Of a DNA stretch of 64,000 nt, positions 8,328 to 58,218 are shown piece after piece (positions within the stretch are counted from its first letter, which is position 1; every line of letters starts with the position of its first letter). The DNA is from a virus. The notes beneath the pieces are model-generated. The model had not been told where the DNA came from and searched no databases. It saw nothing but the letters and a program-made list of their open reading frames with translations. The translations under genes and the position numbers were made by a program. The stretch lies in the IMG/VR virus record IMGVR_UViG_3300046167_000888. One strand, given 5' to 3'.

Positions 8328-8337
8328 ATAAAAATAA

Positions 8338-8403
8338 ATGAAATGTAATTGTAAAGTATGTAATTGTGGAGCATCATGTGATTGTACATGCTGTAATTGC
8401 TAA
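8338..8403 (+). CDS. 21-aa Cys-rich metallothionein-like peptide
   Basis: MKCNCKVCNCGASCDCTCCNC*, 9 Cys; A-rich leader like its neighbours. Confidence 0.6.
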   Translation: MKCNCKVCNCGASCDCTCCNC

Positions 8404-8464
8404 AATAAACAACATATAGACTGATTCATAGCCAGTCGAGATTAAAAAGAAAAATAGACATCTG

Positions 8465-8490
8465 TGGCGTCTCCCTAGGAGACGCCATTT
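8465..8490 (+). terminator. GC-rich hairpin, probable terminator
   Basis: TGGCGTCTCC-CTA-GGAGACGCCA perfect 10-bp stem followed by TTT. Confidence 0.55.
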
Positions 8491-8504
8491 CTAGTTCGTA
8501 TATT
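8477..8504 (+). promoter_or_regulatory. putative early/middle promoter WGGM-N15-TCGTATRTT (representative copy)
   Basis: The same bipartite motif with an exact 15-nt spacer occurs at 9861, 38745, 40509, 56887, 58168 and 59957, with a variant at 39853. Confidence 0.7.
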
Positions 8505-8529
8505 CACGTGTTAAAATGATAATAAAAAT

Positions 8530-33971: not shown

Positions 33972-34298
33972 ATGGCAAGATATACAAACATAAGAGTTAA
34001 AAGTAATAGAAAACCTGATGGTATGCGTGGAGATAGATATTATCCTTCTCCAAAATACCCTCAAATACCTCTTTCTATAAATGATACCTATGTTTATGCT
34101 GAACAAGGAGATAGATATGATCAATTAGCTCTTCAATATTATGGAGATTCTAGTTTATGGTGGATCATTTCAATTGCAAATGAAAAATTACCTCAAAATT
34201 CATATTATCTTCCTTTAGGAGTACAAGTTAGAATACCTTCAAATGTAGGAGGAATTAAAAGTGCCTATAATAGATTAAATAATAGAAATGAGTTATGA
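33972..34298 (+). CDS. LysM/tail-X-like baseplate protein (gp53-like)
   Basis: GDRYDQLALQYYGDSSLWWIISIAN...G.QVRIP. Confidence 0.8.
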   Translation: MARYTNIRVKSNRKPDGMRGDRYYPSPKYPQIPLSINDTYVYAEQGDRYDQLALQYYGDSSLWWIISIANEKLPQNSYYLPLGVQVRIPSNVGGIKSAYNRLNNRNEL

Positions 34299-37200: not shown

Positions 37201-37885
37201 ATTAATTTATTATCCAGAAGTAACCAATAAAAAACAAATTGTAATTCACCATACTGCAGGACGACAAGATGCTAAAGGAGATATTGCAGGTTGGAGAAAG
37301 AAAAACTTCCCAATTGCTACTCATTATATTATAGAAAGAGGTGGTCATGCAGAACACGTATTTTCAGATAAATTTTGGAGTAATCATATTGGAATGCATC
37401 ATGGTAGTAATGTAAGAAGAAATAAAGAATCATTATCTATTGAACTTACAAGTATGGGTTGGTTAACTAAAAAAGATAATGGAACATATCAAGGGTATGT
37501 TGGTAAAGCAAAAACACCATCAGAGTGGGGTGGAGTATCTGAAACTTACATGGTTGATAGTAATGGTAATATTGTAAGAAATCCAAATGGATATAAAGGA
37601 AAAAAATATTTCCAATCTTATAGTGCAACACAATTAACTAAAATGGCAGGAATCATTGATAATTGGTCAAAAACATTTGGTATTACTATTTCTAATCAAA
37701 ATTTTGGAGATGTATTCCCTGATCAAACTAGAGGAGTACCTTCACAAGCAGCAGTTAAAGGTACACCTGGTATTTATACTCATAACTCATATAGAGGAGA
37801 TAAAATTGATGTAATGCCACAAAAAGAATTATTAGAAATAATATTTAAAGGTAAGAAATCAATAAGTTCAATTACAACAGTATAA
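34295..37885 (+). CDS. baseplate hub protein with C-terminal N-acetylmuramoyl-L-alanine amidase domain
   Basis: YLRLGYSMMLEWGW hub region; IVIHHTAG...H..SIE...H....D amidase_2 motifs. Confidence 0.7.
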   Translation: MSIIGESFEGYVKSQINTRQILHGKKSRSNSDLNLLSNQNAWVKLASSVQIVSAPNKEALQAKFPDEKITETQYQAYTKNYGDDKLKAIGLTNTSKFMGTELAKKSVLFNTISAIDKETITNPDGTIKQKGSYRQRSGVLNRKAEVWDDEFSYGLGGTSFGIVPPPGIISAKVNCKNRGSIREATVEIKAQNKFQFELIELLYLRLGYSMMLEWGWDKYQSSDPTKSKTPQQVENTIIDNQWFKWKGKSFNSVLPAIEKYRELYEGNYDGFLGKVVNFDWTFNQDGSYDITLKLITVGDVIESLTVNLPQNIVSIGELKKQISDKYAVTAAQLKDSAIVTSATTSMLAYQLFLDVATKPNKFNGSYTTEAREAFTFNGEVIFPAQPAQVIHSNYFGLYSLIDEDNNVHGSVRKQIKEAEFQKEKFNYFLTFGELMNHIHAKCIPSVNGDKMLSVDTSDNSLCSVFPYQVSMDPKVCLIKPAFEPGLTYMTRDEYRNPGKKTTAIKGYLEWMKRMKEFAVFEEGGAIYGRTMNIYLNYDFVASTLKETSKNGEIKLFNFLKKLCDGVNAAIGGINKLEPILRDDNVITIIDQNPLLGIETSKEYSEFFDKTPAQLELFGYNPSGSVQTSNFVRDFKFNTTIGPNIASMISIGATAEGTSTKNYDGTAFSAWNRGLQDRFQISYNDPPPPEVPKPESLPECHPMTGDQLIKAYNHFLNSEIDTRNWIGWKRSSAGKTYSQYGLKAKGKRDITDCPITNDWWENRTWPEYVQICRNYIRENNIKDISQKEFAGQYINWCIQAFGGKSNSVKMNEFAYYYLLNPDFTAQGKQLFKSYVKILSNKIYEMTGNPSNTTGFIPVGLDIKTDGLSGIKIYNGINVRQEFLPPAYPNSLNFVISKVDHDISENDWTTNLKTISTANTKKTNYGAITQFKDLAAQVADEITEFEIYKGQEPKVTLTSGFDVINKRSRSGLIYYPEVTNKKQIVIHHTAGRQDAKGDIAGWRKKNFPIATHYIIERGGHAEHVFSDKFWSNHIGMHHGSNVRRNKESLSIELTSMGWLTKKDNGTYQGYVGKAKTPSEWGGVSETYMVDSNGNIVRNPNGYKGKKYFQSYSATQLTKMAGIIDNWSKTFGITISNQNFGDVFPDQTRGVPSQAAVKGTPGIYTHNSYRGDKIDVMPQKELLEIIFKGKKSISSITTV

Positions 37886-38757: not shown

Positions 38758-38792
38758 TTTAGGTCGTATATTATAGGGTAAAATGGTTATAA

Positions 38793-40506: not shown

Positions 40507-40573
40507 CGTGGCTCCCCAAATTGGGCTTCGTATATTGGGATTACATTAACAGTTTTAAAATAAAAGTTATCTT

Positions 40574-42477: not shown

Positions 42478-43518
42478 ATGAAGCATAAAGAATTATTTAA
42501 GCTATTGGACGAAGTTCAAGAGCATGGGGAGGAACCTCAATTAAAAAGACATGATAAAGTACTGATTTTAGATGGATTAAATCTATTTTTTAGAAACTTT
42601 GCAATGATGAATATGGTAAATCCTGACGGAGTTCATATTGGAGGATTAGGTGGTTTCTTTCGTTCTTTAGGCGCCATGATTAGACAAACAAATCCAACAT
42701 CTGTTTATGTAGTATTCGACGGAGCAGGTTCAACAACTAACCGTAAGAACCTGCTCTCCGAATACAAAGGAACAAGAAATTTACAACGAATTACAAATTG
42801 GGAAGCATTTGATAGTTTAGAAGATGAGCATGACTCAAAAGTAGACCAAATAGTGCGTATAATCCAGTATTTAAAGCTATTACCTGTTAAAACCACTATA
42901 TTGGATAAAGTAGAAGCGGACGACATTATAGCAGTGTTAGCTGAAAAATTAGTTGAAAAACATAATTCAACTTGTTTTATTGTATCTAGTGATAAAGACT
43001 TTTTACAATTGGTAACTGATAAAATTATTTTATACAGACCAATGGAAAAGGAATATTATACACCTAAAGTAGTAGAAGAAAAATTAGGTTTATTACCTGA
43101 AAATTTTATTTTATATAAAACATTATTAGGTGACAATTCAGATAATATTCCAGGAATTAAAGGATTAGGTGCTAAAGGTATATTTAAAAAGTTTCCTGAA
43201 TTAAAAACTAAAAGTTTAACTTTAGATGATATTTTTGAAATATCTACTAGGAAGTTTAAAGACCACGTTGTATATTCACGCATAATTCAGGATCAAGCCC
43301 GAATTGAAACAAGTTATAAAGTTATGGATTTAAGCATTCCAATGATTGATGATAGAGGTAAGGCTCATATTGATGAATTAATTAATGAAGACATTCCAGA
43401 ATTAAGATCTGATTTATTTATTCAACTTTATAATGAAGATAAATTAGGGGGAATGATTAGAAATTTAGAGAATTGGATTAGAGATATTTTTGAACAATTT
43501 AAAGGTTATAAAGATTAA
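42478..43518 (+). CDS. 5'-3' exonuclease / RNase H (PolI N-terminal, T4 Rnh-like)
   Basis: LDGLNLFFR, VFDG, YKGTR, EADD, SSDKDFLQ, GDNSDNIPGIKGLG. Confidence 0.92.
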   Translation: MKHKELFKLLDEVQEHGEEPQLKRHDKVLILDGLNLFFRNFAMMNMVNPDGVHIGGLGGFFRSLGAMIRQTNPTSVYVVFDGAGSTTNRKNLLSEYKGTRNLQRITNWEAFDSLEDEHDSKVDQIVRIIQYLKLLPVKTTILDKVEADDIIAVLAEKLVEKHNSTCFIVSSDKDFLQLVTDKIILYRPMEKEYYTPKVVEEKLGLLPENFILYKTLLGDNSDNIPGIKGLGAKGIFKKFPELKTKSLTLDDIFEISTRKFKDHVVYSRIIQDQARIETSYKVMDLSIPMIDDRGKAHIDELINEDIPELRSDLFIQLYNEDKLGGMIRNLENWIRDIFEQFKGYKD

Positions 43519-44918
43519 TGACATTACAAACATTAAACCAATACGGAGCTGACTTTCAAATAAAAGTTTTATCATCACTATTAACCCATAAAGATTTTTT
43601 AGTTAATATACATGATATTATTAGTGATGAATATTTTGAAAACCCAGCACATAAATGGGCTATTAAAGAAATACTTAGGTATTATGATAAGTATCATACA
43701 ACACCTGAATTAGAAACATTAAAAATTGAACTACAAAAAGTTGATAATGATGTTTTACAAATATCAATTAAAGAACAACTTAAAAAAGCATTTGTAGCTT
43801 CTGATGATGATTTACAATATGTACAAGAAGAATTTACTAATTTTTGTAAAAACCAACAATTAAAAAGAGCATTAATGACTTCTGTTGATATGTTAAAAGC
43901 AGGAGATTTTGAGTCAATTCGAATGTTAGTTGATAATGCTTTAAAAGCAGGTCAAGATAAAAATATAGGACATGAATATATTAAAGACATTGAAGAACGT
44001 TATAGAGAAAATTCAAGGGAAGTTGTACAAACACCTTGGACCCAAATTAATGAAATACTACAAGGTGGATTGGGAAATGGAGATTTTGGTCTCATATTTG
44101 GTAATCCAGGAGGTGGTAAGTCTTGGAGCTTAGTTGCTTTAGGAGGGTATGCAGTTAGAACAGGTAAAACTGTTCTTCATTATACACTTGAATTAGGAGA
44201 GGATTATGTTGGAAGAAGATATGATGCTTTTTTCTGTAATACTGATGTAAGTAAAATTGGTTTTTATAAAGATAAAGTAGAAGAAACTATACCTCAGTTG
44301 CCAGGTAAACTAATAATTAAAGAATATCCCACAGGTAGGGCAACAATCTCAACAATTGAAGCTCATATTGCGAAATGTACAACTATGGGAAATAAACCAG
44401 ACTTAATAATCATTGATTATGTAGATCTTCTTTCAGGAAGACGTAAAAGTAGGGAGCGTAAGGACGAAATTGATGATATTTATACTAGCACAAAAGGTCT
44501 TGCAAAACAATTAGATATACCAATCTGGTCTGTTTCACAAGTAAACCGTGCAGGAGCACAAGACGACATAATTGAAGGAGACAAGGCAGCAGGGTCATAT
44601 GATAAAATGATGATTTCTGATTTTGCAATGTCTTTATCAAGAAAAAAAGAAGATAAGCAGAGAGGAACCGGACGTCTACATATTATGAAAAATAGATATG
44701 GTATGGATGGTCAATCCTTTTCTTTGTTAGCTAACACATCTACAGGACACTTCGAAGTATTTCCTTACAATACTGACCTAGATGATGTAGAAGCAGCCTC
44801 TCTTAAACCTTCAGCTAAGTCTAATGCTTATGATACGGATGTGGACAGAAGAGAGAAGGCAGCAATGTTTGCAAAATTAAAAACGTCAGATGGCAATTTT
44901 ACTTTTGAGCAGAAATAA
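43518..44918 (+). CDS. replicative DnaB-like helicase (gp41-like)
   Basis: GNPGGGKS, TLEL, IIDYVD, SQVNR, KNRYG. Confidence 0.92.
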   Translation: MTLQTLNQYGADFQIKVLSSLLTHKDFLVNIHDIISDEYFENPAHKWAIKEILRYYDKYHTTPELETLKIELQKVDNDVLQISIKEQLKKAFVASDDDLQYVQEEFTNFCKNQQLKRALMTSVDMLKAGDFESIRMLVDNALKAGQDKNIGHEYIKDIEERYRENSREVVQTPWTQINEILQGGLGNGDFGLIFGNPGGGKSWSLVALGGYAVRTGKTVLHYTLELGEDYVGRRYDAFFCNTDVSKIGFYKDKVEETIPQLPGKLIIKEYPTGRATISTIEAHIAKCTTMGNKPDLIIIDYVDLLSGRRKSRERKDEIDDIYTSTKGLAKQLDIPIWSVSQVNRAGAQDDIIEGDKAAGSYDKMMISDFAMSLSRKKEDKQRGTGRLHIMKNRYGMDGQSFSLLANTSTGHFEVFPYNTDLDDVEAASLKPSAKSNAYDTDVDRREKAAMFAKLKTSDGNFTFEQK

Positions 44919-44942
44919 TTATAACTTTATAAAATAAATACA

Positions 44943-45929
44943 ATGGCAAAAAAATCATTATTACAAGAGCGTATCGTTTATAAACCATTCGAATACCCAG
45001 AAGCACACGATTATTGGATGAAACAACAACAAGCACATTGGCTACACACTGAAGTACCTATGATGTCAGATGTTAACGATTGGAAACAAAATTTAACTGA
45101 AGTTGAAAAAAATATTATTGGTTCTATTTTAAAAGGGTTTGCTCAAACAGAAACTGTAGTAAATGATTATTGGTCATCATTAGTAACAAAATGGTTTAGA
45201 AAACCAGAAGTAATTAAAATGGCAGTTACATTTGGAGCATTTGAAACTATTCACGCTGAAGCTTATTCTTTGTTAAATGAAGAATTAGGATTAGATGATT
45301 TTAGTGAATTTTTAGAAGATGAATCAACAATGGCTAAAATTGAAGCATTAACTGAAGTAAGAGATTCTCATGATGGAACACCTAATTGGCATGAAAGAGC
45401 TAAATCATTAGCAATCTTTTCTGCATTTACAGAAGGTGTAAATTTATTTTCTTCTTTTGCAGTATTACTTTCTTTTAAATTAGATAATAAACTTAAAGGA
45501 GTAGGACAAATTGTAGAATGGAGTATTAGAGATGAATCATTACATTCAGAAGCAGGATGTTGGTTATTTAGAACACTATTAAAAGAACACCCAGAATTTG
45601 ATACCCCAGAATTAAAAGCTGATATTGAAGAGGCAGCTAAATTATCTTTAAAATTAGAATTAGATTTTATTGATACAGTTTATGAAATGGGAGATTTAAA
45701 AGGGTGTCCAAAATATGATTTAGTATCATTTATCAAACATAGAGTAAATACTAAAATGGGTGATCTAGGATATGGACCAATTGTAAATGGTATAGATAAA
45801 GAGGCAGTACAAAGAATGAAATGGTTTGATAGCTTATCAGCTGGAAAACAACATACAGACTTTTTTGCAAATAGAGTAACAAATTATTCAAAAGGTGTTC
45901 AAAATTGGGACGCCGCAGCATTATTTTAA
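44943..45929 (+). CDS. nrdB: ribonucleotide reductase class I beta subunit
   Basis: ETIHAEAY, EGVNLFSSF, RDESLH, DFFA. Confidence 0.95.
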   Translation: MAKKSLLQERIVYKPFEYPEAHDYWMKQQQAHWLHTEVPMMSDVNDWKQNLTEVEKNIIGSILKGFAQTETVVNDYWSSLVTKWFRKPEVIKMAVTFGAFETIHAEAYSLLNEELGLDDFSEFLEDESTMAKIEALTEVRDSHDGTPNWHERAKSLAIFSAFTEGVNLFSSFAVLLSFKLDNKLKGVGQIVEWSIRDESLHSEAGCWLFRTLLKEHPEFDTPELKADIEEAAKLSLKLELDFIDTVYEMGDLKGCPKYDLVSFIKHRVNTKMGDLGYGPIVNGIDKEAVQRMKWFDSLSAGKQHTDFFANRVTNYSKGVQNWDAAALF

Positions 45930-45932
45930 AAT

Positions 45933-47648
45933 ATGGAAAACAACGCACTACAAGTAGATTATAGTAACTGGGAATCAGGTAAACAATATCCTGAGTGGAT
46001 GGATGAAATTTCTTTAGCTACTATTTCAAAGGGATACTTACTCCCAGGTGAAACAGTAAGAACAGCATATAAAAGAGTAGCAAACGCCGCTGCTTCAAGA
46101 TTAAAAAAACCAGAATTAGCTAATAAGTTTTTTAAACTATTTTGGAATGGTTGGGTAGGATTAGCATCACCTGTTTTATCAAATATGGGAACAGATCGTG
46201 GACTACCAATTTCATGTTTTGGTATTGATACACCAGATTCTATACGTGGAATCGGTTTAACTAACGCAGAACTAATGAAATTAACCGCATCTGGCGGAGG
46301 TGTAGGTATTTCATTATCTCGTATTAGAAAACGTGGAGAATATATCTCAGGTAATGGTAAGAGTGAAGGTGTAGTGCCTTGGGCTAAAATTTATGATTCA
46401 GCGATTATTGCTACAAATCAAGGAAATGTACGTAGAGGAGCAGCTTCTGTTAATTTAGATATTAATCATGGAGATATAGACGAGTTTCTACAAATTCGTA
46501 GACCGAAGGGTGATCCAAATAGACAGTGTTTAAATTTACACCAATGTGTAGTTGTAGATGATACTTTTATGCGTAGGTTAGAAGCAAGAGATCCTGATGC
46601 ATTAAATAGATGGGCTACTATTCTAAAAGCTAGAATGGAAACAGGTGAACCTTATATCATGTATAAAGATAATGTTAATAAAGATAATCCTATTGCCTAT
46701 AGATTAAATAATTTAGAAGTAACAATGACTAATATATGTTCAGAAATTACTTTATTTACAGATGAAGAACATAGTTTTATTTGTTGTTTATCTTCTATGA
46801 ACTTAGCAAAATATGATGAATGGAAAGATACAGATGCGGTTGAGTTAGCAACTTGGTTCTTAGATGGTGTAATGCAAGAATTTATTGATAAATCCTCTGG
46901 TAGAGAATCATTAAAAAGAACTAATAATCATGCTAGAAAAGGTAGAGCATTAGGTTTAGGTGTAATGGGATGGCACACTTTCTTACAACAAAAGGGATTA
47001 CCATTTAATTCAATTGCTTCTACAGCCCATACTCATAATATTTTTAATGATATTAGAGGTAAAGCTGAAAAAGCATCTATGAATCTAGCATCTGAATATG
47101 GAGAACCAGTTTGGTGTAGAGGAACAGGAATGAGAAATACTCACTTACTAGCTATTGCACCTACAGTTTCTAATTCAGTAATAGTAGGAGGTATTAGTGC
47201 GGGTATTGAACCTCAACCAGCTAACATTTATACTTTTAATGGTGCTAAAGGTACTTTTATTAGAAAAAATAAAGTATTACAATCTATTTTAGCTGAAAAG
47301 GGAGAAGATAAAGACAAATGGTGGGATCAAATGTTACAAGATGGAGGATCAGCTCAAAACCTACCTGATAATGTATTAACACCAGATGAAAAAGAATTAT
47401 TTTTAACTTTCCCAGAAATAAATCAATTAGAATTAGTAAGACAAGCTGCTATTAGACAAACATATGTGGATCAAACACAATCATTGAATTTAAGTTTTGA
47501 TCCTAATGATTCACCAAAATGGATAAATCAAGTACATATGGAAGCATGGAAATTAGGAATTAAAACCTTATATTACCTACGAACTGACTCAGTAATTAAA
47601 GGTGATTTAGGATCTAGAATGGCAGATTGTATTAGCTGTGATGGATAA
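45933..47648 (+). CDS. nrdA: ribonucleotide reductase class I alpha subunit (short, no ATP cone)
   Basis: PISCF, TNICSEI, CCLSS, IAPT, KTLYY, C-terminal CISC. Confidence 0.95.
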   Translation: MENNALQVDYSNWESGKQYPEWMDEISLATISKGYLLPGETVRTAYKRVANAAASRLKKPELANKFFKLFWNGWVGLASPVLSNMGTDRGLPISCFGIDTPDSIRGIGLTNAELMKLTASGGGVGISLSRIRKRGEYISGNGKSEGVVPWAKIYDSAIIATNQGNVRRGAASVNLDINHGDIDEFLQIRRPKGDPNRQCLNLHQCVVVDDTFMRRLEARDPDALNRWATILKARMETGEPYIMYKDNVNKDNPIAYRLNNLEVTMTNICSEITLFTDEEHSFICCLSSMNLAKYDEWKDTDAVELATWFLDGVMQEFIDKSSGRESLKRTNNHARKGRALGLGVMGWHTFLQQKGLPFNSIASTAHTHNIFNDIRGKAEKASMNLASEYGEPVWCRGTGMRNTHLLAIAPTVSNSVIVGGISAGIEPQPANIYTFNGAKGTFIRKNKVLQSILAEKGEDKDKWWDQMLQDGGSAQNLPDNVLTPDEKELFLTFPEINQLELVRQAAIRQTYVDQTQSLNLSFDPNDSPKWINQVHMEAWKLGIKTLYYLRTDSVIKGDLGSRMADCISCDG

Positions 47649-47653
47649 ACAAT

Positions 47654-48832
47654 ATGAAAACCAGAATATTTTGTTTTTTTCTTTTAATTAGTGGGTTTGT
47701 AAATGCACAAACTACTGTAAACATAAGGTCACTTAAGACTCATTATGGTGGTAGTCAATCAGGTCAGTATTATACAGGTAATGCTAACTCTCACTCAGAA
47801 TTTGACGCTATGGTTAATCTTGCCGATGGCGGTACTACACTCTATACAGAAGGAACTGTAGATATAACAAGTTATCAAGGCCCAAGAGGTGGTAATCATA
47901 CTCCTTATCAACTATGGAATCCACCAAGATGGGGTACTCAAAGATATGCAATTATCTATTCTGGTTGGTTTAAACCCAATAAATCAGGCGTATATTCATT
48001 TAGAACATTTACTGATGACTCACATGAGTTTATGATTAAAGGTATTGGTAAGACTAATGATATAGTTACTAAACATTATGGTTGGAATGTATGGGCTTAT
48101 GGTACGGCAACCCTAGATAAAAATACATGGTATGAGTTTGAATATAGAATTCAAAATTTTGGTGGTATAGGTGCTGCAAATTTCCAATATAAAATACCGA
48201 ATGGTAGTAGCTATAATCAACTCAGTCCCGGTCATCCATTTGCAGAATGGTCTACTACTGAACCTATTGACCCTATAACTCATACTGGATATGTTTATGG
48301 AGCAGAAGAAGAAGCTTTAGCCGGAGTTACAGTACAGTTAAAAACTCAAAATAAAAATCAAGTTGGTTTCTCATATACAACACAAGCTACTACAACCACA
48401 AATTCAAATGGTTATTACTCCTTTAACACTACTTTAGATTATAATAGCTATGACTATACTATTAATATAGTACAACCGGCATTATCAATACCTACTCTAA
48501 ATGATATTAGTTACTTTACTAGTAAATTAATTAGTGGGGTTTATAATTCTAAAGATTATTGGAGAATGGATGTTAATAATGACGGGAAATTTAGTGTTGC
48601 AGATTTATATTCTATGTTAGCTTATATGAATGGTATATTTACACAATATGCTAATACTACTCCTTCAACAAAAGTTTTTCATTACCAACAAACCCCATTT
48701 TATTGGGATCCTTTAGATACAGATACTGATGACAAATCTGAAAGCTTTGGATATGGGAGTTATAGTTTATTTGATCGAAATAACGGCGATTCTACTATAT
48801 TTTACTTAATAAGAGCGGGACATAGGAATTAG
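47654..48832 (+). CDS. secreted PA14-domain protein with CnaB-like domain and C-terminal dockerin-like module
   Basis: Signal peptide ending VNA-Q; YSGWFKP..SGVYSFRTFTDD (PA14); GVTVQL...TTNSNGYYSF; DVNNDGKFSVADL Ca-loop. Confidence 0.7.
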   Translation: MKTRIFCFFLLISGFVNAQTTVNIRSLKTHYGGSQSGQYYTGNANSHSEFDAMVNLADGGTTLYTEGTVDITSYQGPRGGNHTPYQLWNPPRWGTQRYAIIYSGWFKPNKSGVYSFRTFTDDSHEFMIKGIGKTNDIVTKHYGWNVWAYGTATLDKNTWYEFEYRIQNFGGIGAANFQYKIPNGSSYNQLSPGHPFAEWSTTEPIDPITHTGYVYGAEEEALAGVTVQLKTQNKNQVGFSYTTQATTTTNSNGYYSFNTTLDYNSYDYTINIVQPALSIPTLNDISYFTSKLISGVYNSKDYWRMDVNNDGKFSVADLYSMLAYMNGIFTQYANTTPSTKVFHYQQTPFYWDPLDTDTDDKSESFGYGSYSLFDRNNGDSTIFYLIRAGHRN

Positions 48833-48867
48833 TCCCACATATTTATAATAATAAAATATTTAAACGG

Positions 48868-49956
48868 ATGAAAAAATTACTCTTTATGTTAGCGGGGTTA
48901 ATGCTAACGACAACAGTTTATGCCCAAACTACATCACCTGATGCCAATAAGCCTTATGTGATTCTTGATTCTAATTATACTTTAGAATCAATTAGTTCTT
49001 CAAATAATACAATAGTAGATATTTATTATGACAATACTACAGGCAACAAAGTAAAAGGTGTTCAATTTTCTTTTAATTATGATAAAGATGTATTTGATTC
49101 TCCAACTGTAACTTACAACAATACTTCAGGTACTGATGGTTATTTATCTACAAGTGTAGATGCAACAAATGGTATCGTAAAAGTTGTATGGGCTTATAAT
49201 GGTGCTACTTCTACTTTTGATATTACTTCTGGTAATATGTTTGATGTTTCGTTACCATTTAAAGATGCTTATACTAATGGTACAGTTGATGGAATTGACT
49301 TTACTAGTACCTTAACTGCTTATTATGCAAAATCTGATGGAACAGATGCTTCATTAGGTACATCAGATAATGGTGGTAATTTTATAGAACCAGTATTTAA
49401 TTACATAGCTACTATTTTAAATAGCCCTTCAAATCCAACTGAATCGATTCCTGTAATTTTACAAAAATCTGCAGATGGTAGTTCTTGGGCAAATGTATCT
49501 ACAATAACAACTGGAGCAGATGGAAAAGCAACATTCGTAGCAAACCTAGACCAAGGTTATTGGCAATTAAGACTTAAAATTGCAAGTGGATTAAATGCTA
49601 GTACAGCACTAACAACAGCTGATGCTAATATGATTGCTCAAATAGCAGCAGGGGCACAAGCAACATCAGGTATACAATTTTATACTGCTAACCCAAATCA
49701 AGCAAATGGAGTTACAGTATCAGATTCTTATTTATTGTTTGCTAGATTAGCAACTAATGGTACAAGTTACGCTAATAATCCAGATGTATTATTCTTTACA
49801 GAATCACAGTATAATACTATTAACAGTGCAACATCAGACCAGTCTAGTTCAATACCAGGTCTAGCAGAATTCTTATCACCAAATATAAATGGAACTACAA
49901 CTGGTAATTTCTATATATTAGTATTAGGTGATGCCAACGGAACAGGATTAAATTAA
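48868..49956 (+). CDS. secreted protein with cohesin-like N-terminal domain and dockerin-like C-terminal module
   Basis: Signal peptide ending VYA-Q; VKGVQFSFNYD; LTTADANMIAQ...NPNQANGVTVSD...LGDANG. Confidence 0.65.
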   Translation: MKKLLFMLAGLMLTTTVYAQTTSPDANKPYVILDSNYTLESISSSNNTIVDIYYDNTTGNKVKGVQFSFNYDKDVFDSPTVTYNNTSGTDGYLSTSVDATNGIVKVVWAYNGATSTFDITSGNMFDVSLPFKDAYTNGTVDGIDFTSTLTAYYAKSDGTDASLGTSDNGGNFIEPVFNYIATILNSPSNPTESIPVILQKSADGSSWANVSTITTGADGKATFVANLDQGYWQLRLKIASGLNASTALTTADANMIAQIAAGAQATSGIQFYTANPNQANGVTVSDSYLLFARLATNGTSYANNPDVLFFTESQYNTINSATSDQSSSIPGLAEFLSPNINGTTTGNFYILVLGDANGTGLN

Positions 49957-49959
49957 TAA

Positions 49960-50694
49960 ATGAGATTATTATTAATACTATTACTAACAATAACAACAGT
50001 AGCTCATTCTCAGGTCGTATTTAAAGTACCTGAGATTGAGGTTCCTGTTAGTGAGTATATTAATTTACCTGTAGAGATTGAAACCTCAGGAGAAACAGTT
50101 GGAAGTTTAGAATTTGCTTTAAATTTTGATTCACAGTATTTAGAATTTGAAAATATTACTGTAACAGCTAAGGCACAAGAATGGCTGACATACACACAGG
50201 ATTGGGAAGGTGAAAAAGTAAGATGGGGAGGTTATGATGCCTCTTTTGGTGACTTTACTATAAGTAATACAACTGAATTATTTACAGTAAGATTTAAGGT
50301 TATTGATCAAAATTGGACTGAAATACCAATTACTATAGGGAGAAAAACAGCAGGCACAGATTTAGGATGGGATATTGATGTTGATAATACAGATGGATAT
50401 GTTAATAGAATGTCACTTCCATTTGATACACAACCAATAGATGGTATTTACGGTATAGTATATCCTGTCCCAGTAAAAGGTCCATTAACATTTGAATTAA
50501 CAGTTCCTGATAATGACTTTTATACAATTAGAGTAATTACGTATAACGGAACATTAATGAAATCAATTAGAAAGAAATTTTTTAGTGGTTATGTTTCATT
50601 TCAAATGGATTTATCAAATTTAGCATCTGCAATTTATTTACTACAAGTAACTAATGGTAGATTTATTAAAACATTTAAAATTATTAAAAAATGA
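49960..50694 (+). CDS. secreted cohesin-domain protein with T9SS type A C-terminal sorting domain
   Basis: Signal peptide ending AHS-Q; LPVEI...GSLEFALNFD...LFTVRFKV; VYPVPV...MDLSNLASAIYLLQV...KTFKIIKK. Confidence 0.75.
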   Translation: MRLLLILLLTITTVAHSQVVFKVPEIEVPVSEYINLPVEIETSGETVGSLEFALNFDSQYLEFENITVTAKAQEWLTYTQDWEGEKVRWGGYDASFGDFTISNTTELFTVRFKVIDQNWTEIPITIGRKTAGTDLGWDIDVDNTDGYVNRMSLPFDTQPIDGIYGIVYPVPVKGPLTFELTVPDNDFYTIRVITYNGTLMKSIRKKFFSGYVSFQMDLSNLASAIYLLQVTNGRFIKTFKIIKK

Positions 50695-50948
50695 GTAAAA
50701 ATAAAGGATTTTTTTCGGAAATTAAAAACCAAGTAAAGACAGGTATAGGATTAGTTATAACAGCAGGTTTCGGATTATTAATTGCTAATATGCAATCAAT
50801 ATTTGAACCTAAAGAAGATGTTATAGAACCACCTGTAATGGAACAAAAGATTAACCCACCAGCAGCTTCTAAAGATACTATTGTAATTTCTAAAACAATA
50901 ATTATACCTCCTAAGAAAGAAAAAAAAGAAGAAGAAATAACATGGTAA
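50691..50948 (+). CDS. small single-TM protein with Pro-rich tail
   Basis: IGLVITAGFGLLI TM segment. Confidence 0.65.
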   Translation: MSKNKGFFSEIKNQVKTGIGLVITAGFGLLIANMQSIFEPKEDVIEPPVMEQKINPPAASKDTIVISKTIIIPPKKEKKEEEITW

Positions 50949-51646
50949 GAATATTTTTAGTCATATCGTTACTCCTAAGTCTTACAGCTAATGCTCAATT
51001 AGGTAAAACTGAAACAGAAAATTATAAAGGTAAATTTGAACAAGATGCAGATATAGATGAAGTATCTGATTATATGTTAGATTATCAATTACCAATTCAA
51101 GTCTTAAATATTGGCTTCACACCAGAATTATATGAGTTTTATCCTGAATTAAGAGAAAATAGAGTAGGATTAGGTGTTAGTAATATTACTTTATCTTATC
51201 TAGAATGGACTGATAGATTTTTATTTACAGAAGATAAAGAAGATATTAAACAAAGAATGGTTAAGCAACATAAAGCTGCAGCAAAAGGTATATCGGCAAA
51301 CGATATTAAAGTTGTAGGCAATGTTGTGTTAGCAGAATATTTTGTATATGTAGAAATCTATGATTACTCGGTATCAGAAGAAGAAGAAGTTACAGTTAAT
51401 GGGGTTAAAACTGTATTAAAAACAATTATTGGTATGCAAGTTAGATTTGTGAATGCTGAAACTGGAACTATTTTTACAGGAAGTGGTAGTGGTGAAGCAG
51501 TTACAATTAAACGATCTCAAATTGGAGAAGATAATGAAGTTAAATTTAATAAATCTACAATAGGGATTGCTACTAAAAAAGCTTTAGAATCTGGAACTGC
51601 TCGTATCGTAAAAAGGATGATAAAACGTGGAATATTTAAAGAATAA
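50942..51646 (+). CDS. secreted CsgG/HfaB-like protein
   Basis: Signal peptide; GVSNI...DRF...AEYFVYVEIYDY...MQVRFVNAETGTIF...KKALE. Confidence 0.6.
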   Translation: MVRIFLVISLLLSLTANAQLGKTETENYKGKFEQDADIDEVSDYMLDYQLPIQVLNIGFTPELYEFYPELRENRVGLGVSNITLSYLEWTDRFLFTEDKEDIKQRMVKQHKAAAKGISANDIKVVGNVVLAEYFVYVEIYDYSVSEEEEVTVNGVKTVLKTIIGMQVRFVNAETGTIFTGSGSGEAVTIKRSQIGEDNEVKFNKSTIGIATKKALESGTARIVKRMIKRGIFKE

Positions 51647-52793
51647 AATATTATTAATTTTATTTCTCTTACCATTAGTAAGTTACGGCCAGTGGTCTTA
51701 TACATTTACAGACCCTTGTACTTTAACTCAACAAACAATTCAAATAGGAGGCAGCAACTCTGTTGCTTTAAATTATTTTGGTAATGTCCAAACATTTACT
51801 CAAGATGATTTTTCAAATGGAGCTTTTGATTCTTGGTTAGATTTAGTTACTCAAGCTAATACTTCAAGCCCTTGTCAAAGTGTAACTCAAGTAATATTAA
51901 ATACTACTAATTCAGTAGCAGTACAAAATACAGTTACAGTTGTTACAAATATAATGTCTATATTAGGAGGAGATATGATACCTCAAGCAGCTTCATCTAC
52001 AGCAGCCCCAGTTGCTGAAGCAATAGATAACTCTGCAGGTGAAGATGAAGATGAAGGATCAGGTAATGAAGAAGAAGAAGCCGAAGGTGCTGTTGCTACC
52101 TCACTTGCTAATTCTCTTTCAAATGCTGCAGATGGAGGAAGTGCAGAAGCTAATAAAAATGCTGGTTCATTAATTGCATCTGGAGATCTTGTAATTATAG
52201 ACAATCAAGATAATTCAAACGGAAGACAACTAAAAGTAGTTAGCTCAATTACACACGCCAATACAGAACAAACTAGAATTAAAGGAGCCTTATTTACATA
52301 TACATCTGTTACTAATGATTTTAGTTTAACCCTTTATAAATCATGGATTAATCCTAAAAGAACATTTAATTTAGTAGGTGCAAACACTACTATGACAGAT
52401 TGGAATTTGAACCATTTAAATACAACTACTATTTTAGAGTCATTTAAATTTGGTAAAAAGAAATATACAGGTATGGCTGGTCTTAATTTTACAATCGGAA
52501 AATTAGGTAAACGAGATCTACAAAATATATCTTCAGTAGCTGGAATACATAGAAATTTTAAAATAAGTGATAAAGTAACTACATCAACTTTACTATTAGG
52601 TGTCTATTCTCCATTTACACAATATTATGAAGGCAAATGGTGGGATCCAGGTATGCTAATAGTACCTTTTAGTTCATGGGATATAAAAATAACAAAAACA
52701 TTTAAATATAATATCAGTTTTACTGGAGTTTGGCATTCACAAGGAAATGCATTAAATTTTCAGGTATTAACTGGTGGTAAAATAAGATTTTAA
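51627..52793 (+). CDS. secreted protein with acidic linker and C-terminal outer-membrane beta-barrel-like domain
   Basis: Signal peptide ending SYG-Q; two Cys; amphipathic strands; terminal Phe (GGKIRF). Confidence 0.55.
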   Translation: MEYLKNKILLILFLLPLVSYGQWSYTFTDPCTLTQQTIQIGGSNSVALNYFGNVQTFTQDDFSNGAFDSWLDLVTQANTSSPCQSVTQVILNTTNSVAVQNTVTVVTNIMSILGGDMIPQAASSTAAPVAEAIDNSAGEDEDEGSGNEEEEAEGAVATSLANSLSNAADGGSAEANKNAGSLIASGDLVIIDNQDNSNGRQLKVVSSITHANTEQTRIKGALFTYTSVTNDFSLTLYKSWINPKRTFNLVGANTTMTDWNLNHLNTTTILESFKFGKKKYTGMAGLNFTIGKLGKRDLQNISSVAGIHRNFKISDKVTTSTLLLGVYSPFTQYYEGKWWDPGMLIVPFSSWDIKITKTFKYNISFTGVWHSQGNALNFQVLTGGKIRF

Positions 52794-52794
52794 T

Positions 52795-53235
52795 ATGAAA
52801 AAAATAATTATAACATTAATGCTTTTACCTATACTTTCATTCTCACAGGAATGTTATACTGTAACTGAAGTAAGTACACAGGTTGAAATGGAAGAAATTA
52901 GTAAAAACCGTATAATATTTGGTATAAAACAAATAATGGAAGATGTAATCTCAGACAAATATGAATTATGTATGGATGGGAAACCTATAACAATAATAGT
53001 AAAATCTATAGAAGCACCTACAACAAGTATTGAATTTGGAGTCTGGAGTAAAGCCGCAAAAAAAACAATTGTTAAAATGCTAGTTTACATAGATGGTAAA
53101 GAAATTGAAGTAACTGGTAAAGCTAAATCTACAGTAGAATCGACTTTTATTGATTTAAATAATGAAAAATTACCATTTAGCAAAACAACATTTTCTTCTG
53201 CAATAAAAAAGGCAATTGATCGAATAAAATTTTAA
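52795..53235 (+). CDS. secreted hypothetical protein
   Basis: Signal peptide ending SFS-Q; C-terminal FSKTTFSSAIKKA resembles FNKSTIGIATKKA of the CsgG-like protein. Confidence 0.6.
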   Translation: MKKIIITLMLLPILSFSQECYTVTEVSTQVEMEEISKNRIIFGIKQIMEDVISDKYELCMDGKPITIIVKSIEAPTTSIEFGVWSKAAKKTIVKMLVYIDGKEIEVTGKAKSTVESTFIDLNNEKLPFSKTTFSSAIKKAIDRIKF

Positions 53236-53295
53236 ATTTCTTCGAATATAATTAAATTTTCATATATTTATTGATAAACATAAAACGATAATAAT

Positions 53296-54492
53296 ATGAG
53301 GATATTAGTATTAATTGTTTCGTTTATTTTATTTTCACCAACCGTTTTACAAGCCCAAATTTTTCAAGAAATCTATAAAGATTTTTTAAAATATGGTACT
53401 GTTTATGGAGCAGGTGATATTTCAAACTCAATAGAGGCTGCAGAGCCAACTTACTTTTTAAGAACAAACCCAGATGGGAGTTTATATTCAATTCCTGATG
53501 TGGTTGATAATACTCCAAAATATCCATTTGATTACAGATATGGATTTGGAATAAGAAAATTAGCTAGATTTGATTACGAGAGAAAACCAAAGAATTTTTA
53601 TGATGGTACAGAAGAACAATTAGTATTTTCTGCCCCAACATCAGCAGTACAAGGATTAGAATACCAATTCCATTATGAAAAAGAAAGATGGAGAGGAGAA
53701 AATTTTACAAATTATAATTACTTTTTAAAACACACAGGTAAATATCATATTGTAAAACTTCAAGCTAGAGAAGTAGGTAAAATTAATCTTAAATATAATT
53801 CAGCCGAAGTAAGAGGTAGATTACCAATAGGAAAAAAGTTTAGCTTTTCAGCTGGAGCAATATTAAGAGGACATGAAAGAGCTTACGGTTATAACCCAGT
53901 CGAAATATGGTTAAATGAAATTGATGAGAATGGGAACCCAGTAAATCAATGGTATGAATTAGGAAGAAATTATGGTTATAATGATATTTTCTATACACAA
54001 ACAAGCATAGACCCAATTACAGGAGAAGAAACAACAATGCAAGATTGGTGTTGGGTAGATGCAGATGGAAACCAAGTAGCACACTCAGATTTAGATTTTA
54101 GAGAAACTGTAATGCCTATGTTAATGAATAGGTTTAACGGTGAAGCTTGGGATTTATTAGATCCATGGTTAGATTTAGCACCAATAGTAGGTGTAGATTT
54201 TTACCACTACAAAAAAGATTTTTGGCTACACGGATATGCTAATTATATTTTACCATACCACAGGTATATTAGAGGAAATGAAGATTTTAGTTACTTACAC
54301 AGAAATAGTTGGGGACTTGGAGGTCACAATAACAATTTAAAAGGTGAACAATGGCACGATTATTCTTTTGGTGTTAATTTAGGAACTAAAATTGGTAAAA
54401 ACTTAGGGATATTCATAGAAGGAGAATATTCAAAAATGTGGGATAGCAAATTATATCAAACAACCTTCGGATTAAATTATACATTTAAATAA
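53296..54492 (+). CDS. putative outer-membrane beta-barrel protein
   Basis: Signal peptide ending LQA-Q; aromatic-rich strands; C-terminal TFGLNYTFK beta-signal-like. Confidence 0.6.
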   Translation: MRILVLIVSFILFSPTVLQAQIFQEIYKDFLKYGTVYGAGDISNSIEAAEPTYFLRTNPDGSLYSIPDVVDNTPKYPFDYRYGFGIRKLARFDYERKPKNFYDGTEEQLVFSAPTSAVQGLEYQFHYEKERWRGENFTNYNYFLKHTGKYHIVKLQAREVGKINLKYNSAEVRGRLPIGKKFSFSAGAILRGHERAYGYNPVEIWLNEIDENGNPVNQWYELGRNYGYNDIFYTQTSIDPITGEETTMQDWCWVDADGNQVAHSDLDFRETVMPMLMNRFNGEAWDLLDPWLDLAPIVGVDFYHYKKDFWLHGYANYILPYHRYIRGNEDFSYLHRNSWGLGGHNNNLKGEQWHDYSFGVNLGTKIGKNLGIFIEGEYSKMWDSKLYQTTFGLNYTFK

Positions 54493-54776
54493 TGGCAAAG
54501 CAAATAGGAGAAGATACTAAGGTAACTTTGGATTTAAAAACTATTGGGATGATAGTAGCTTTTACTGTCTCTCTAGCAGGTATGTATTTTACACTAAAAG
54601 CAGATATAGCTTACGCAGCTACACAACCTGAACCAGTTATTGAAAGGGTAGAATATGACTTAAAGGATGAGTTAATTCGCCAAACCATAATGGATACCCA
54701 AGAAGACGTTGAAATGATACTGGAGAAAATGGAAAAGCTAGAAGAGCGTCTTTATGAGTTATCTAAAAATAGATAA
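54492..54776 (+). CDS. single-TM coiled-coil protein
   Basis: TM IGMIVAFTVSLAGMYF followed by a heptad tail. Confidence 0.65.
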   Translation: MAKQIGEDTKVTLDLKTIGMIVAFTVSLAGMYFTLKADIAYAATQPEPVIERVEYDLKDELIRQTIMDTQEDVEMILEKMEKLEERLYELSKNR

Positions 54777-54778
54777 AC

Positions 54779-55204
54779 ATGAAAAAACTTTTAATATTAT
54801 TTTATATTTTTCCTTCAATGCTTTTAGCACAACAGGAAGTTCCTGAAAAATATTGGTTAGATGATTCAAATTACGAAGAAATTGTAAATGGCAATTCAGC
54901 ATTTGGTGATGATGATAGCAAAATTGTAGTAGTAGAATATTGGGCCAAATTTAATGAAATAAATTGTTACGAACACTGGCAAGAGCTAGCAAATAGACCA
55001 GACATAGAATATTATAGAGTAGATATTTCTAAAGCTCCACTAGCAAAGAAAAAATATAGAGTTAGAATGGCTCCCACCATGTTTATTATAACTCAAGATG
55101 GAATACAATCTAAATTTAAAGCAGGATTAGATCTATTATTCCCCTCTTCTAAAGAAGAAGTTGAAGAAGCTATTGAAGAAGCTAAAAATTCCAATAGATT
55201 TTAA
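54779..55204 (+). CDS. secreted thioredoxin-fold protein lacking CXXC
   Basis: VVVEYWAKFN, YRVDI, KYRVRMAPT. Confidence 0.6.
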   Translation: MKKLLILFYIFPSMLLAQQEVPEKYWLDDSNYEEIVNGNSAFGDDDSKIVVVEYWAKFNEINCYEHWQELANRPDIEYYRVDISKAPLAKKKYRVRMAPTMFIITQDGIQSKFKAGLDLLFPSSKEEVEEAIEEAKNSNRF

Positions 55205-55266
55205 TATTTATAACCACACCAATAAGGTTCCGCTAATAGTTTTACTAATTTTTAAAAACTAGAAGT

Positions 55267-55506
55267 ATGGCATTTAAAGATTTGTTTAAAGACGACAATA
55301 ACATTAACGAAAAATCAGTAGTAGGATTTGCATCCTTCCTGGTAATGGTCATTTTCGCAGTAGTAGATATTATTACTGGGGTATTTGGTCAAGAACTTCA
55401 AATTCAAGATTACATTTATAACTCTTTTGTAATCATAACTCTCGGTTCATTCGGAATCGCTGAGGTAGGCAAAATCTTCGGTAAGAAAAAAGACGAAGAC
55501 AACTAG
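55267..55506 (+). CDS. small 2-TM membrane protein (holin candidate)
   Basis: Two hydrophobic segments and a charged C-tail; late motif upstream. Confidence 0.5.
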   Translation: MAFKDLFKDDNNINEKSVVGFASFLVMVIFAVVDIITGVFGQELQIQDYIYNSFVIITLGSFGIAEVGKIFGKKKDEDN

Positions 55507-55543
55507 TTGCTAGTTACGTTTGTTTAACTTAAAACCCAATTTT

Positions 55544-55774
55544 ATGGAAATTCTAAACAAGATCGGCTCTTGGGCTGACAAACTGACTCACATAGGTGTG
55601 TCATTAATCGCTTTAGGAGTAGTACTTGAAGTACTATTCAATGGAGCAGGAATCCCCTTTTGGCCTGAAATATCAGTGGTAGGTAATATCATGAATATTT
55701 TAGGATCATTAAACGCAGAAGGACTACTAGGTTTAGTAGGTGCTTTTGTATTATATCATATAGTTAAAAAATAA
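55544..55774 (+). CDS. small membrane protein
   Basis: Hydrophobic ORF; start placed at ATG of MEILNK. Confidence 0.6.
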   Translation: MEILNKIGSWADKLTHIGVSLIALGVVLEVLFNGAGIPFWPEISVVGNIMNILGSLNAEGLLGLVGAFVLYHIVKK

Positions 55775-55789
55775 GGAGGTGTTCAATAT

Positions 55790-55820
55790 TTATTCCCGTG
55801 CCCTAGTGGTACGGGGGTAA
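55790..55820 (+). terminator. stem-loop between membrane gene and glycosyltransferase
   Basis: TTATTCCCGTGCC-CTAGT-GGTACGGGGGTAA; no clear T-tract. Confidence 0.4.
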
Positions 55821-55832
55821 TATATTATAGTT

Positions 55833-56435
55833 ATGAAAGTTGAAGTAAAAGTTATATCATTAAAGAAAAGACAAGATAGGAGAGATTATACCAATAATCA
55901 TTTAAAAAACAGGTATGATTTTTCTTTTTTTGATGCTATTGATGGTAAAACTCATCAATTTACTCCCGAAGAAAATCAATTATTTAAAAATTCTGAATTT
56001 CATACTTATAATGTATATCCTGAAGCATGTAAAGGTATATGTTTAAGTAATTATTATTTATGGAAATACGCTGTTGATAATAATACTAATTTAGTTATAT
56101 TTGAAGATGATGTTATAATTACATCCCCAGAATGGTTTAATTGGGAAGAGATGTTTAAAGATGATTTTGATTTACATTTTTTAACTAATCAAAAAGAATT
56201 TGCTAATTGTTATGCTTATTTAGTTTCAGTTAAAGGAGCAAAAAAATTAATTAAACATTTTAACGAAGTAGGATTTATAGATCAATTAGATAATGACTTA
56301 AGACATTTACCAAAAGATAAATTTAATGCAAGAAATGAACTATTTAACCATTTTGGTACATTTTCTCCTTATGGTAAGTGGAATTTTGGATCCGATATAT
56401 TATTAGAAGGTCATAAATCTCATGTAAAGTTCTAA
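55833..56435 (+). CDS. glycosyltransferase family 25
   Basis: VISLKKRQDRR, FFDAIDG, LSNYYLW, IFEDD, AYLVSVKGAKKL. Confidence 0.85.
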   Translation: MKVEVKVISLKKRQDRRDYTNNHLKNRYDFSFFDAIDGKTHQFTPEENQLFKNSEFHTYNVYPEACKGICLSNYYLWKYAVDNNTNLVIFEDDVIITSPEWFNWEEMFKDDFDLHFLTNQKEFANCYAYLVSVKGAKKLIKHFNEVGFIDQLDNDLRHLPKDKFNARNELFNHFGTFSPYGKWNFGSDILLEGHKSHVKF

Positions 56436-58159: not shown

Positions 58160-58218
58160 GAAATATTTGGCTTCCCGAGATAGCAGTCGTATATTTATGT
58201 AATAGAAAAATAAAGGTC

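Follow-up and report, generated by a model that had tools for sequence, protein, structure and literature searches.

A predicted cohesin-dockerin cassette with an exchangeable lectin-type head in marine Bacteroidota myophages

We analyzed a 64,000-nucleotide stretch of viral DNA, IMG/VR record IMGVR_UViG_3300046167_000888 (the whole stretch is hereafter the window), and within it three consecutive genes for exported proteins that we call A, B, and C. The window is part of a myophage genome, encoding a portal, a major head protein, a head-tail adaptor, a tail sheath, and a tail tube. The 160-kb Flavobacterium phages vB_FspM_immuto, of the genus Immutovirus, are the only relatives in culture: a tblastn comparison of B and of the downstream gene E with cultured phages matched four Immutovirus records only, and a megablast of 20 kb of the window against phages returned no match. 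A, B, and C are plus-strand open reading frames (ORFs) lying directly 3' of the genes for a DnaB-type helicase, nrdB, and nrdA, and they form the start of a run of exported or membrane proteins that continues with D, E, F, G, and H (table 1). Each of the three begins with an N-terminal Sec-type signal peptide followed by Gln. Behind it, A carries a lectin-type head and a dockerin-like tail, B a cohesin and a dockerin-like module, and C a cohesin and a type IX secretion system (T9SS) sorting domain.

Modular composition of the three exported proteins

The two domains of C are recognized by curated profiles (table 1). Its type A C-terminal sorting domain (CTD) also matches Pfam Por_Secre_tail (PF18962) over residues 167-241 with 30.5 bits (cut-off 27), it is kept across 12 orthologues, and the fused relatives P0243 and P0273 likewise have type A CTD profiles above cut-offs at their C-terminus. 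Type A CTDs direct export by the T9SS, a system that Flavobacterium possesses and whose cargo folds in the periplasm before transport.

Protein B has no Pfam match of its own. Its AlphaFold2 (AF2) model, computed from an alignment of 26 relatives, has a mean pLDDT of 88.6 and a pTM of 0.77. Residues 25-176 superpose on the type I cohesin 6kgd_A over 141 residues (VIA Z 15.7, root-mean-square deviation 2.5 Å), about 45 further cohesin entries score Z >= 10, and the model has the nine-stranded jelly roll of the cohesin fold. The top Foldseek matches of the entire protein are the CipA CohI9-X-DocII chains 4fl4_I and 3kcp_A (E 4e-9), with Z 14.5-14.9 over residues 25-298, a range that includes the prealbumin-like sandwich (residues 178-240). 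We searched a profile of the B orthologues against 1.84 billion representatives, the E values referring to the whole library. Residues 56-140 match a protein with six Pfam cohesins (E 2.4e-8) and residues 243-304 match six proteins with 4-10 Pfam Dockerin_1 units (E 4e-6 to 4e-4), this segment aligning in turn to each of the units. Against sequences in the Protein Data Bank (PDB), the B profile gave weak matches only, to a transthyretin-like protein (E 0.02) and to the ScaC cohesin (E 0.22). The cohesins of B and C align with each other by hhalign with a trimmed alignment (E 1.5e-4, probability 52%), pairwise BLASTP of the two proteins being merely suggestive (E 0.11). B closes with an extension of about 60 residues whose C-terminal end reads LGDANGTGLN, LGDANGTG being invariant.

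The AF2 model of A is less even, with a mean pLDDT of 56.7, values of 70-87 for residues 98-200 of the head and for the sandwich, and values below 45 for the tail alone. The head model matches the PA14 lectins Flo1, Flo5, Epa1, and MpPA14 (Foldseek probability 1.0, E 4e-5 to 1e-3). Pfam PA14 (PF07691) does not match A even at E <= 1; it does match the relatives P0287, P0305, and P0340 at 27.5-43.6 bits (cut-off 24). A aligns full length with P0340 (BLASTP E 3e-13), whose aligned stretch is the Pfam PA14 domain at 43.6 bits. In this alignment the DD pair of A, within FTDDSHEF, faces SDDGSDL of P0340, and the pair is kept in all PA14-headed orthologues. In PA14 adhesins, the DD pair binds Ca2+ and sugar. 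As modelled, the head of A is a PA14 beta-barrel with its DD pair, and sugar binding is predicted. The middle domain has sub-threshold Pfam matches to CarboxypepD_reg, SdrD_B, and SpaA, and fold matches to pilin CnaB domains by Foldseek, and it aligns weakly with chain 4wi0_B, an XDoc of ScaA (E 0.54). The A profile matched PDB sequences weakly only: RsgI3 PA14 (E 0.34), the same ScaA XDoc (E 0.54), and dockerins (E 1.4-1.9).

The tails of A and B are homologous. Residues 205-359 of the B profile match the C-termini of many A-type proteins, pairwise BLASTP of A and B again being merely suggestive (E 0.05), and two helices are predicted in both tails. That of A has one canonical loop (DVNNDGKFSVAD), its first segment retaining only the helix and Asp284. 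Both tails are dockerin-like modules that fall outside Pfam Dockerin_1. Searches of A and B against Pfam and NCBIfam at E <= 1 found no cohesin, type B CTD (TIGR04131/PF13585), or PorP/SprF match.

An earlier note, made from the letters of the window, had placed the three ORFs at these positions and had read in them a PA14 domain with its DD motif, a CnaB-like domain, and a dockerin-like Ca loop (A), a cohesin-like and a dockerin-like module (B), and a cohesin-like and a T9SS type A domain (C). The ORFs are confirmed, and each module stands: those of C through Pfam and TIGR04183 scores above curated cut-offs, those of B through the AF2 fold and the profile matches to cohesin and Dockerin_1 proteins, and those of A through the Foldseek matches, the homology to P0340, and the loop.

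Table 1. Position of the cassette, its modules, and associated features in the window (residues of the proteins in brackets)
Feature	Position	Strand	Basis
Protein A, 392 aa: signal peptide, PA14-fold head, CnaB/prealbumin sandwich, dockerin-like tail	47654..48832	+	
A head (aa 21-205), predicted PA14-type lectin domain, DD motif at aa 120-121	47714..48268	+	Foldseek, P0340 alignment
A middle domain (aa 206-275), CnaB/prealbumin-like sandwich in X-module position	48269..48478	+	
A tail (aa 276-392), dockerin-like module and C-terminal extension	48479..48829	+	Homology to B tail
A Ca loop DVNNDGKFSVAD (aa 306-317)	48569-48604	+	Fits dockerin Ca-loop pattern
Promoter-like motif ATATTTATAATAA, 17 nt upstream of B	48839..48851	+	
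Protein B, 362 aa: signal peptide, cohesin, prealbumin-like sandwich, divergent dockerin, extension	48868..49956	+	
B cohesin (aa 24-177)	48937..49398	+	Fold match, profile match, hhalign
B dockerin-like segment (aa 241-304), helices 250-261 and 284-295, degenerate loop NPNQANGVTVSD	49588..49779	+	
Protein C, 244 aa: signal peptide, cohesin, T9SS type A C-terminal sorting domain	49960..50694	+	
C cohesin (aa 20-128)	50017-50343	+	Pfam Cohesin (PF00963) 34.5 bits, cut-off 24.1
C T9SS type A CTD (aa 167-244)	50458-50691	+	TIGR04183 32.9 bits, cut-off 23
Co-conserved downstream genes D-G	50691..53235	+	Synteny in all 33 loci, L001, and L036
Exported/membrane run D-H after C	50691-54492		C/D, D/E, and E/F overlap
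Motif form ATATTTATAA(T/C)AA	10688, 13559, 22531, 25256, 25556, 27374, 29009, 31435, 48839, 56435	+	
Intergenic word TCGTATATT	8328-8529, 38758-38792, 40507-40573, 58160-58218		

Conservation, head exchange, and expression

Synteny of A-B-C-D-E-F-G extends over 33 IMG/VR contigs, with identities as low as 26-33%, and includes Immutovirus, where the genes correspond to gp013-gp019. In the lineages of L029 and L036, A is positioned after G. In metagenomes, B forms 269 clusters at 90% identity, and the cassette stretch was found in marine metagenomes of 16 studies. B and C are a single polypeptide in the L029-L035 lineage, in about 12 clusters at 50% identity (627-668 aa), and in L036. These fusion clusters carry Pfam Cohesin and Por_Secre_tail, and their modules follow the order cohesin, sandwich, dockerin, linker, cohesin, and T9SS CTD. 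We regard this natural fusion as the strongest genomic indication that B and C act as one unit. A scan of 185,579 species genomes returned one relative only, on a phage-like contig; the evidence for absence elsewhere is weak, the scan having relied on one peptide pattern. Read together, the conserved order and the fusions indicate that A, B, and C are not sporadic host captures, the alternative against which the earlier note had wished its three-protein set to be checked by synteny.

This relative, L036 (CAIWBA010000291.1), is a 254-kb contig in a "Bacteroidetes" metagenome-assembled genome (MAG); besides the complete cassette it encodes tail-collar proteins and T4-type topoisomerase II subunits, and it is probably a jumbo phage binned into the MAG. 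A viral scan with the fused relative P0243 found nothing.

The heads found at the A position are diverse. They belong to PA14, Lectin_C, GEVED, or Laminin_G_3 (ConA-like) families, all above Pfam cut-offs, and are borne on one conserved sandwich-plus-dockerin tail, which agrees with the proposal of the earlier note that A forms a lectin-type tip. The Lectin_C heads contain EPN and WND motifs. Identities of head and tail are discordant between phages: relative to L003, A of the window has 26% identity in the head and 84% in the tail, relative to L012 the values are 85% and 56%, and L009 compared with L003 gives 66% and 48%. Heads of A are therefore exchanged by recombination at the domain boundary. 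At the Immutovirus-type A position (L001 7461-8459, gp013; L024:6924-7919), the C-type lectin lies behind an N-terminal prealbumin-like domain, and the combination of EPN and WND is a mannose-type, Ca-dependent signature.

The promoter-like motif that the earlier note had reported at 48839 is real, enriched, and common to structural genes. Within the window, ATATTTATAAYAA has 19 matches at <=1 mismatch for 3.15 expected. Its 11 exact copies are all on the plus strand, and most occupy short spacers; the portal, adaptor, sheath, and tube genes are among those preceded by such a copy. Copies of the form ATATTTATAA(T/C)AA lie about 15-45 nt before genes. The motif precedes B in L002, L003, L006, and L029 as well, and the nearest relatives retain it; A, whose start lies 5 nt past nrdA, lacks a copy. 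Because the motif is common to structural genes, expression of B and of the genes that follow probably coincides with that of these late genes. A scan for sigma-70 promoters and terminators did no better than shuffled sequences, nor did the narrower pattern CAYATATTTAT reach significance.

Four RNA libraries contain contigs that match B and C exactly and cover them, two reaching across the B-C junction; as evidence of expression these are weak, carry-over of DNA being possible. The short contigs matching B and C exactly come from runs X15, X17, X18, and X19, of four studies, compared over 43000-56000. The nrd and H regions were matched in these runs mostly by diverged contigs (90-95%), so several related phages co-occur in those samples. 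The RNA runs consist of contigs only, which give no starts, strand, or level, and gaps in their cover (e.g., 52.1-52.9 kb in three runs) are uninformative.

A possible surface complex, its alternatives, and known systems

The earlier note had called for a multimer model of the A dockerin with the B cohesin, and in our model A is indeed placed on the cohesin of B rather than on that of C. The modelled chains were the B cohesin (residues 21-178), the C cohesin (18-150), and the scored partner A (206-392), each with its own alignment. The tail of A on the B cohesin reached an ipSAE of 0.79 (0.77-0.80 in three runs); the best control, in which the B cohesin was replaced and the C cohesin kept, reached 0.23, and two controls with unrelated partners gave 0.00. 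The mark passed by this model is reached by 58 of 80 solved complexes and by 2 of 110 mismatched pairs, counts that hold only roughly here because own alignments and three chains were used. Runs of the A-B-C model agreed in at least 55% of contacts, with a partner pLDDT of at least 76. A is modelled on the B cohesin through residues 285-294 and 314-329, and all lowest-error pairs join A residues 292 and 315-322, in the two dockerin helices, to B residues 63-66, 107-110, and 152-158. A passing score may reflect likeness to solved cohesin-dockerin complexes; the informative part of the model is the preference for the B cohesin over the C cohesin.

We interpret A, B, and C as a phage-encoded, cellulosome-style plug-and-socket complex for the envelope of an infected Flavobacterium-type host, a reading to which we assign a probability of about 0.6. 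The three proteins would enter the periplasm through their Sec signal peptides. There, the dockerin helices of A would plug into the cohesin of B, and B would be held on C, non-covalently in the window phage and as one polypeptide in many relatives. The type A sorting domain of C would pass the assembly to the host T9SS, which would release it to the medium or fix it on the cell surface; we infer anchoring at the surface via the T9SS from the CTD alone. The result would be a 1:1:1 display of the sugar-binding head. As heads are exchanged by recombination between related phages, the ligand probably varies with the host strain and is most likely a host surface glycan; that the lectin head can be exchanged speaks for a glycan ligand that faces outward and differs between strains. 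On the use of such a display we can only speculate: masking of receptors, which would block superinfection or spare progeny from binding to debris, or sticking of infected cells to neighboring hosts or particles.

Several observations weigh against this interpretation. The predicted binding of A to B comes from one structure-model job on a textbook pair of modules. Pfam Dockerin_1 (PF00404) matches neither A nor B even at E <= 1, and the two canonical Ca-loop segments of type I dockerins are found in neither protein, the first loop being canonical in none of them. The second Ca loop of B, NPNQANGVTVSD, is degenerate, with Asn at position 1 and Ala at position 5; the B-C fused relatives retain DVNGDxxITISD in its place. 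In many other relatives the promoter-like motif before B is missing, and the gap between A and B is about 20 nt. No lineage has a T9SS sorting domain in A or B, which leaves their route over the outer membrane unexplained. Since A and B never carry a CTD, the ride-along of untagged partners is the weak point of the mechanism. We consider doubtful the more specific scheme in which untagged A and B assemble in the periplasm on CTD-tagged C, leave through the T9SS as a folded non-covalent complex, and so display at the surface a lectin, swapped by recombination to suit the glycans of host strains, that baits uninfected hosts onto the dying cell or masks the phage receptor. Finally, C is translationally coupled by overlaps to D, E, and F, which resemble envelope proteins (as leads), and the complex may for this reason work inside a larger apparatus rather than as a free surface display.

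Such an apparatus could consist of A, B, and C together with D as an inner-membrane anchor, a CsgG/LpoB-like E, F as an outer-membrane barrel, and G. Cohesin-dockerin contacts would then hold together a periplasmic or outer-membrane machine for lysis timing, secretion through a pore of its own, or a block of DNA entry, and the T9SS tag would only place one subunit in the outer membrane. This main rival is unlikely in our estimation, even though it would account for the C/D, D/E, and E/F overlaps, for the arrangement of B to G behind one motif, and for the co-conservation of D-G with A-C in every lineage, including those of L029 and L036 in which A follows G. E is the best conserved gene of the block (89-96% identity), and A and B, having no CTD, would need another route or be retained inside. 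Atlas feature scores, which are language-model leads only, relate E to CsgG/HfaB/LpoB clusters (0.94, with 172-182 shared features) and the C-terminus of F to outer-membrane barrels (0.92-0.94). Published phage CsgG/CsgF genes have been given proposed roles in lysis or "sibling capture" (PMC7029224, PMC9004378). On the other side, E, F, and G have no significant sequence match in Pfam, NCBIfam, or the PDB, their fold assignments being leads only, no lipobox Cys follows the signal peptide of E, and a strain-variable lectin head suits an outward-facing ligand better than a periplasmic one. This explanation also overlaps partly with the plug-and-socket complex instead of excluding it.

The earlier note had gone further and proposed a fiber, in which B polymerizes head to tail by inserting its dockerin into the cohesin of the next B, C serves as anchor, and A caps a long adhesive filament. 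B does bear both modules, and the tails of A and B, besides being homologous, resemble each other in the residues predicted to make contact (V-A/V-S at loop positions 10-11, L-A/F-A at 17-18), so the B tail could fit the cohesin of B itself. Chain growth is nevertheless quite improbable: the tail of A, modelled with high confidence on the same cohesin, would compete for it, the B-C fusions suggest a fixed 1:1 pairing, the Ca loop of B is degenerate in the window lineage, and there are no repeated cohesins as in true scaffoldins. A 1:1:1 chain would explain the B-C fusions more simply, and chaining of B is not needed. The three-protein interpretation of that note is partly supported overall.

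That A, B, and C are independent secreted "morons" captured from hosts and lying side by side without mutual binding is very improbable. Their domains are common in Bacteroidota secretomes, adjacency of genes alone is weak evidence of binding, and phage T9SS cargo genes occur as variable islands (PMC7468147); against this stand the gene order kept down to 26-33% identity, the fusion of B and C in many lineages, the tail module common to A and B, the complex model, which passes and drops in score when the B cohesin is removed, and, as a weak point given its single peptide pattern, the lone relative on a phage-like contig among the species genomes. Least probable of all is a role as virion decoration or receptor-binding proteins, with a lectin head for adsorption, because although B has a motif common to structural genes and head swapping on a conserved tail resembles tail-fiber tip exchange, all three proteins have Sec signal peptides and C a T9SS sorting domain, whereas virion assembly takes place in the cytoplasm, the cassette is located some 10 kb past the structural block, adjacent to nrdA and nrdB, and A, B, and C match no PHROG, structural families included.

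Bacteria and archaea are known to build enzyme complexes by cohesin-dockerin assembly. The plug-and-socket complex proposed here most resembles the anchoring end of the Clostridium thermocellum cellulosome, where CipA CohI9-X-DocII docks on the type II cohesins of SdbA/OlpB (3kcp, 4fl4): B has the same module order of cohesin, Ig-like spacer, and dockerin, and the three tiers would correspond to dockerin cargo (A), adaptor scaffoldin (B), and anchoring cohesin protein (C). Unlike the cellulosome, the cassette is phage-encoded, its cargo is a lectin and not an enzyme, and each subunit has one cohesin. Its anchor is a T9SS sorting domain in a diderm, as opposed to surface-layer homology (SLH) repeats in a monoderm, and its dockerins have at most one canonical Ca loop, an extension of about 60 residues, and scores below Pfam Dockerin_1. 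A cellulosome joins dockerin-borne enzymes on a multi-cohesin scaffoldin; we found no enzyme domain, and B and C have one cohesin each. With single cohesins, no enzymes, a T9SS anchor, and sub-Pfam dockerins, the cassette is therefore not a cellulosome. The B cohesin is also similar (Z 10.8-13.6) to modules of Clostridium perfringens glycoside-hydrolase toxin complexes (2jh2, 2o4e, 2w1n, 2vo8) and to the Archaeoglobus cohesin (2xdh), which serve assembly outside cellulose breakdown. Such non-cellulosomal pairs join bacterial enzymes, whereas the cassette is viral, lectin-tipped, and T9SS-tagged. The head of A shares with the PA14 adhesins of yeast (Flo1/Flo5), Candida (Epa1), and Marinomonas (MpIBP PA14) its fold and a DD pair at the place of the Ca-binding Asp-cis-Asp, but only 12-19% sequence identity, and it remains below Pfam PA14.

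Among phages, the "Cryophage" carries T9SS type A cargo genes, one of them for a PA14 protein, which vary between phage variants and were proposed to alter the surface of the infected cell (Bellas et al. 2020, PMC7468147). It is likewise a Bacteroidota phage with type A sorting domains. Each of its cargo proteins has its own CTD, and no cohesin or dockerin was reported, whereas in the cassette only C, or the B-C fusion, is tagged and the lectin would ride on it. Pelagimyophages and the Methylophilales phage Melnitz encode "curli-like" CsgG/CsgF genes, for which "sibling capture" or lysis timing was proposed (PMC7029224, PMC9004378). These are also myophages of marine bacteria with outer-membrane secretion-type genes, and the feature profile of E, in the same block as C, is CsgG-like; those phages have no described cohesin, dockerin, or lectin, and the CsgG likeness of E is a language-model lead only. 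A dockerin domain lies beside an adhesin-like gene on one archaeal-virus contig (PMC13452462). Our full-text literature search found no paper on a viral cohesin-dockerin set, and in GenBank the annotation of the Immutovirus genes goes no further than "lectin C-type domain-containing," "hypothetical," and "cohesin domain-containing." Phage T9SS cargo including a PA14 protein is thus already published (PMC7468147), and we found no paper on the assembly itself.

The cassette provides a full three-tier set of cargo, adaptor, and anchor, with exchangeable lectins, in a widespread clade of marine Bacteroidota myophages. If the plug-and-socket reading is correct, these phages would, late in infection, remodel the infected cell's sugar-binding surface, the T9SS would be open to viral hijack, possibly carrying untagged partners, and the swapping of lectin heads would form a second arena of phage-host glycan co-evolution beside tail fibers. 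Both superinfection exclusion and the ecology of Flavobacteria attached to particles are touched by this. For surface display in Bacteroidota, the cassette would also supply compact, orthogonal cohesin-dockerin pairs, and it can be tested directly in culture, with Immutovirus phages grown on Flavobacterium sp. LMO8.

Neighboring genes and other observations

By a crude scan, plus-strand ORFs with signal-peptide-like or transmembrane-like segments are concentrated at 47.6-58.9 kb. D (85 aa) has one transmembrane segment and a Pro/Lys-rich tail. E and G have 234 and 146 residues, respectively. F (388 aa) consists of a conserved N-domain, an acidic linker of variable length, and a barrel-like C-terminus ending in Phe. 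H (398 aa), which ends in an aromatic residue, is found in some relatives only. D to H match nothing in Pfam or NCBIfam. A Gln directly after the predicted signal peptide, as AQ, SQ, or GQ, is shared by A, B, C, E, F, G, and H (47654-54492), and agrees with the "Q-rule" for exported proteins of Bacteroidota.

Outside this block, an ORF of 1196 aa at 34295-37885 has an amidase-like stretch (lysis-category PHROG) near its C-terminus and is possibly a tail-associated lysin. Another word that recurs between genes, TCGTATATT, stands before a gene set different from that of the promoter-like motif and may mark another promoter class.

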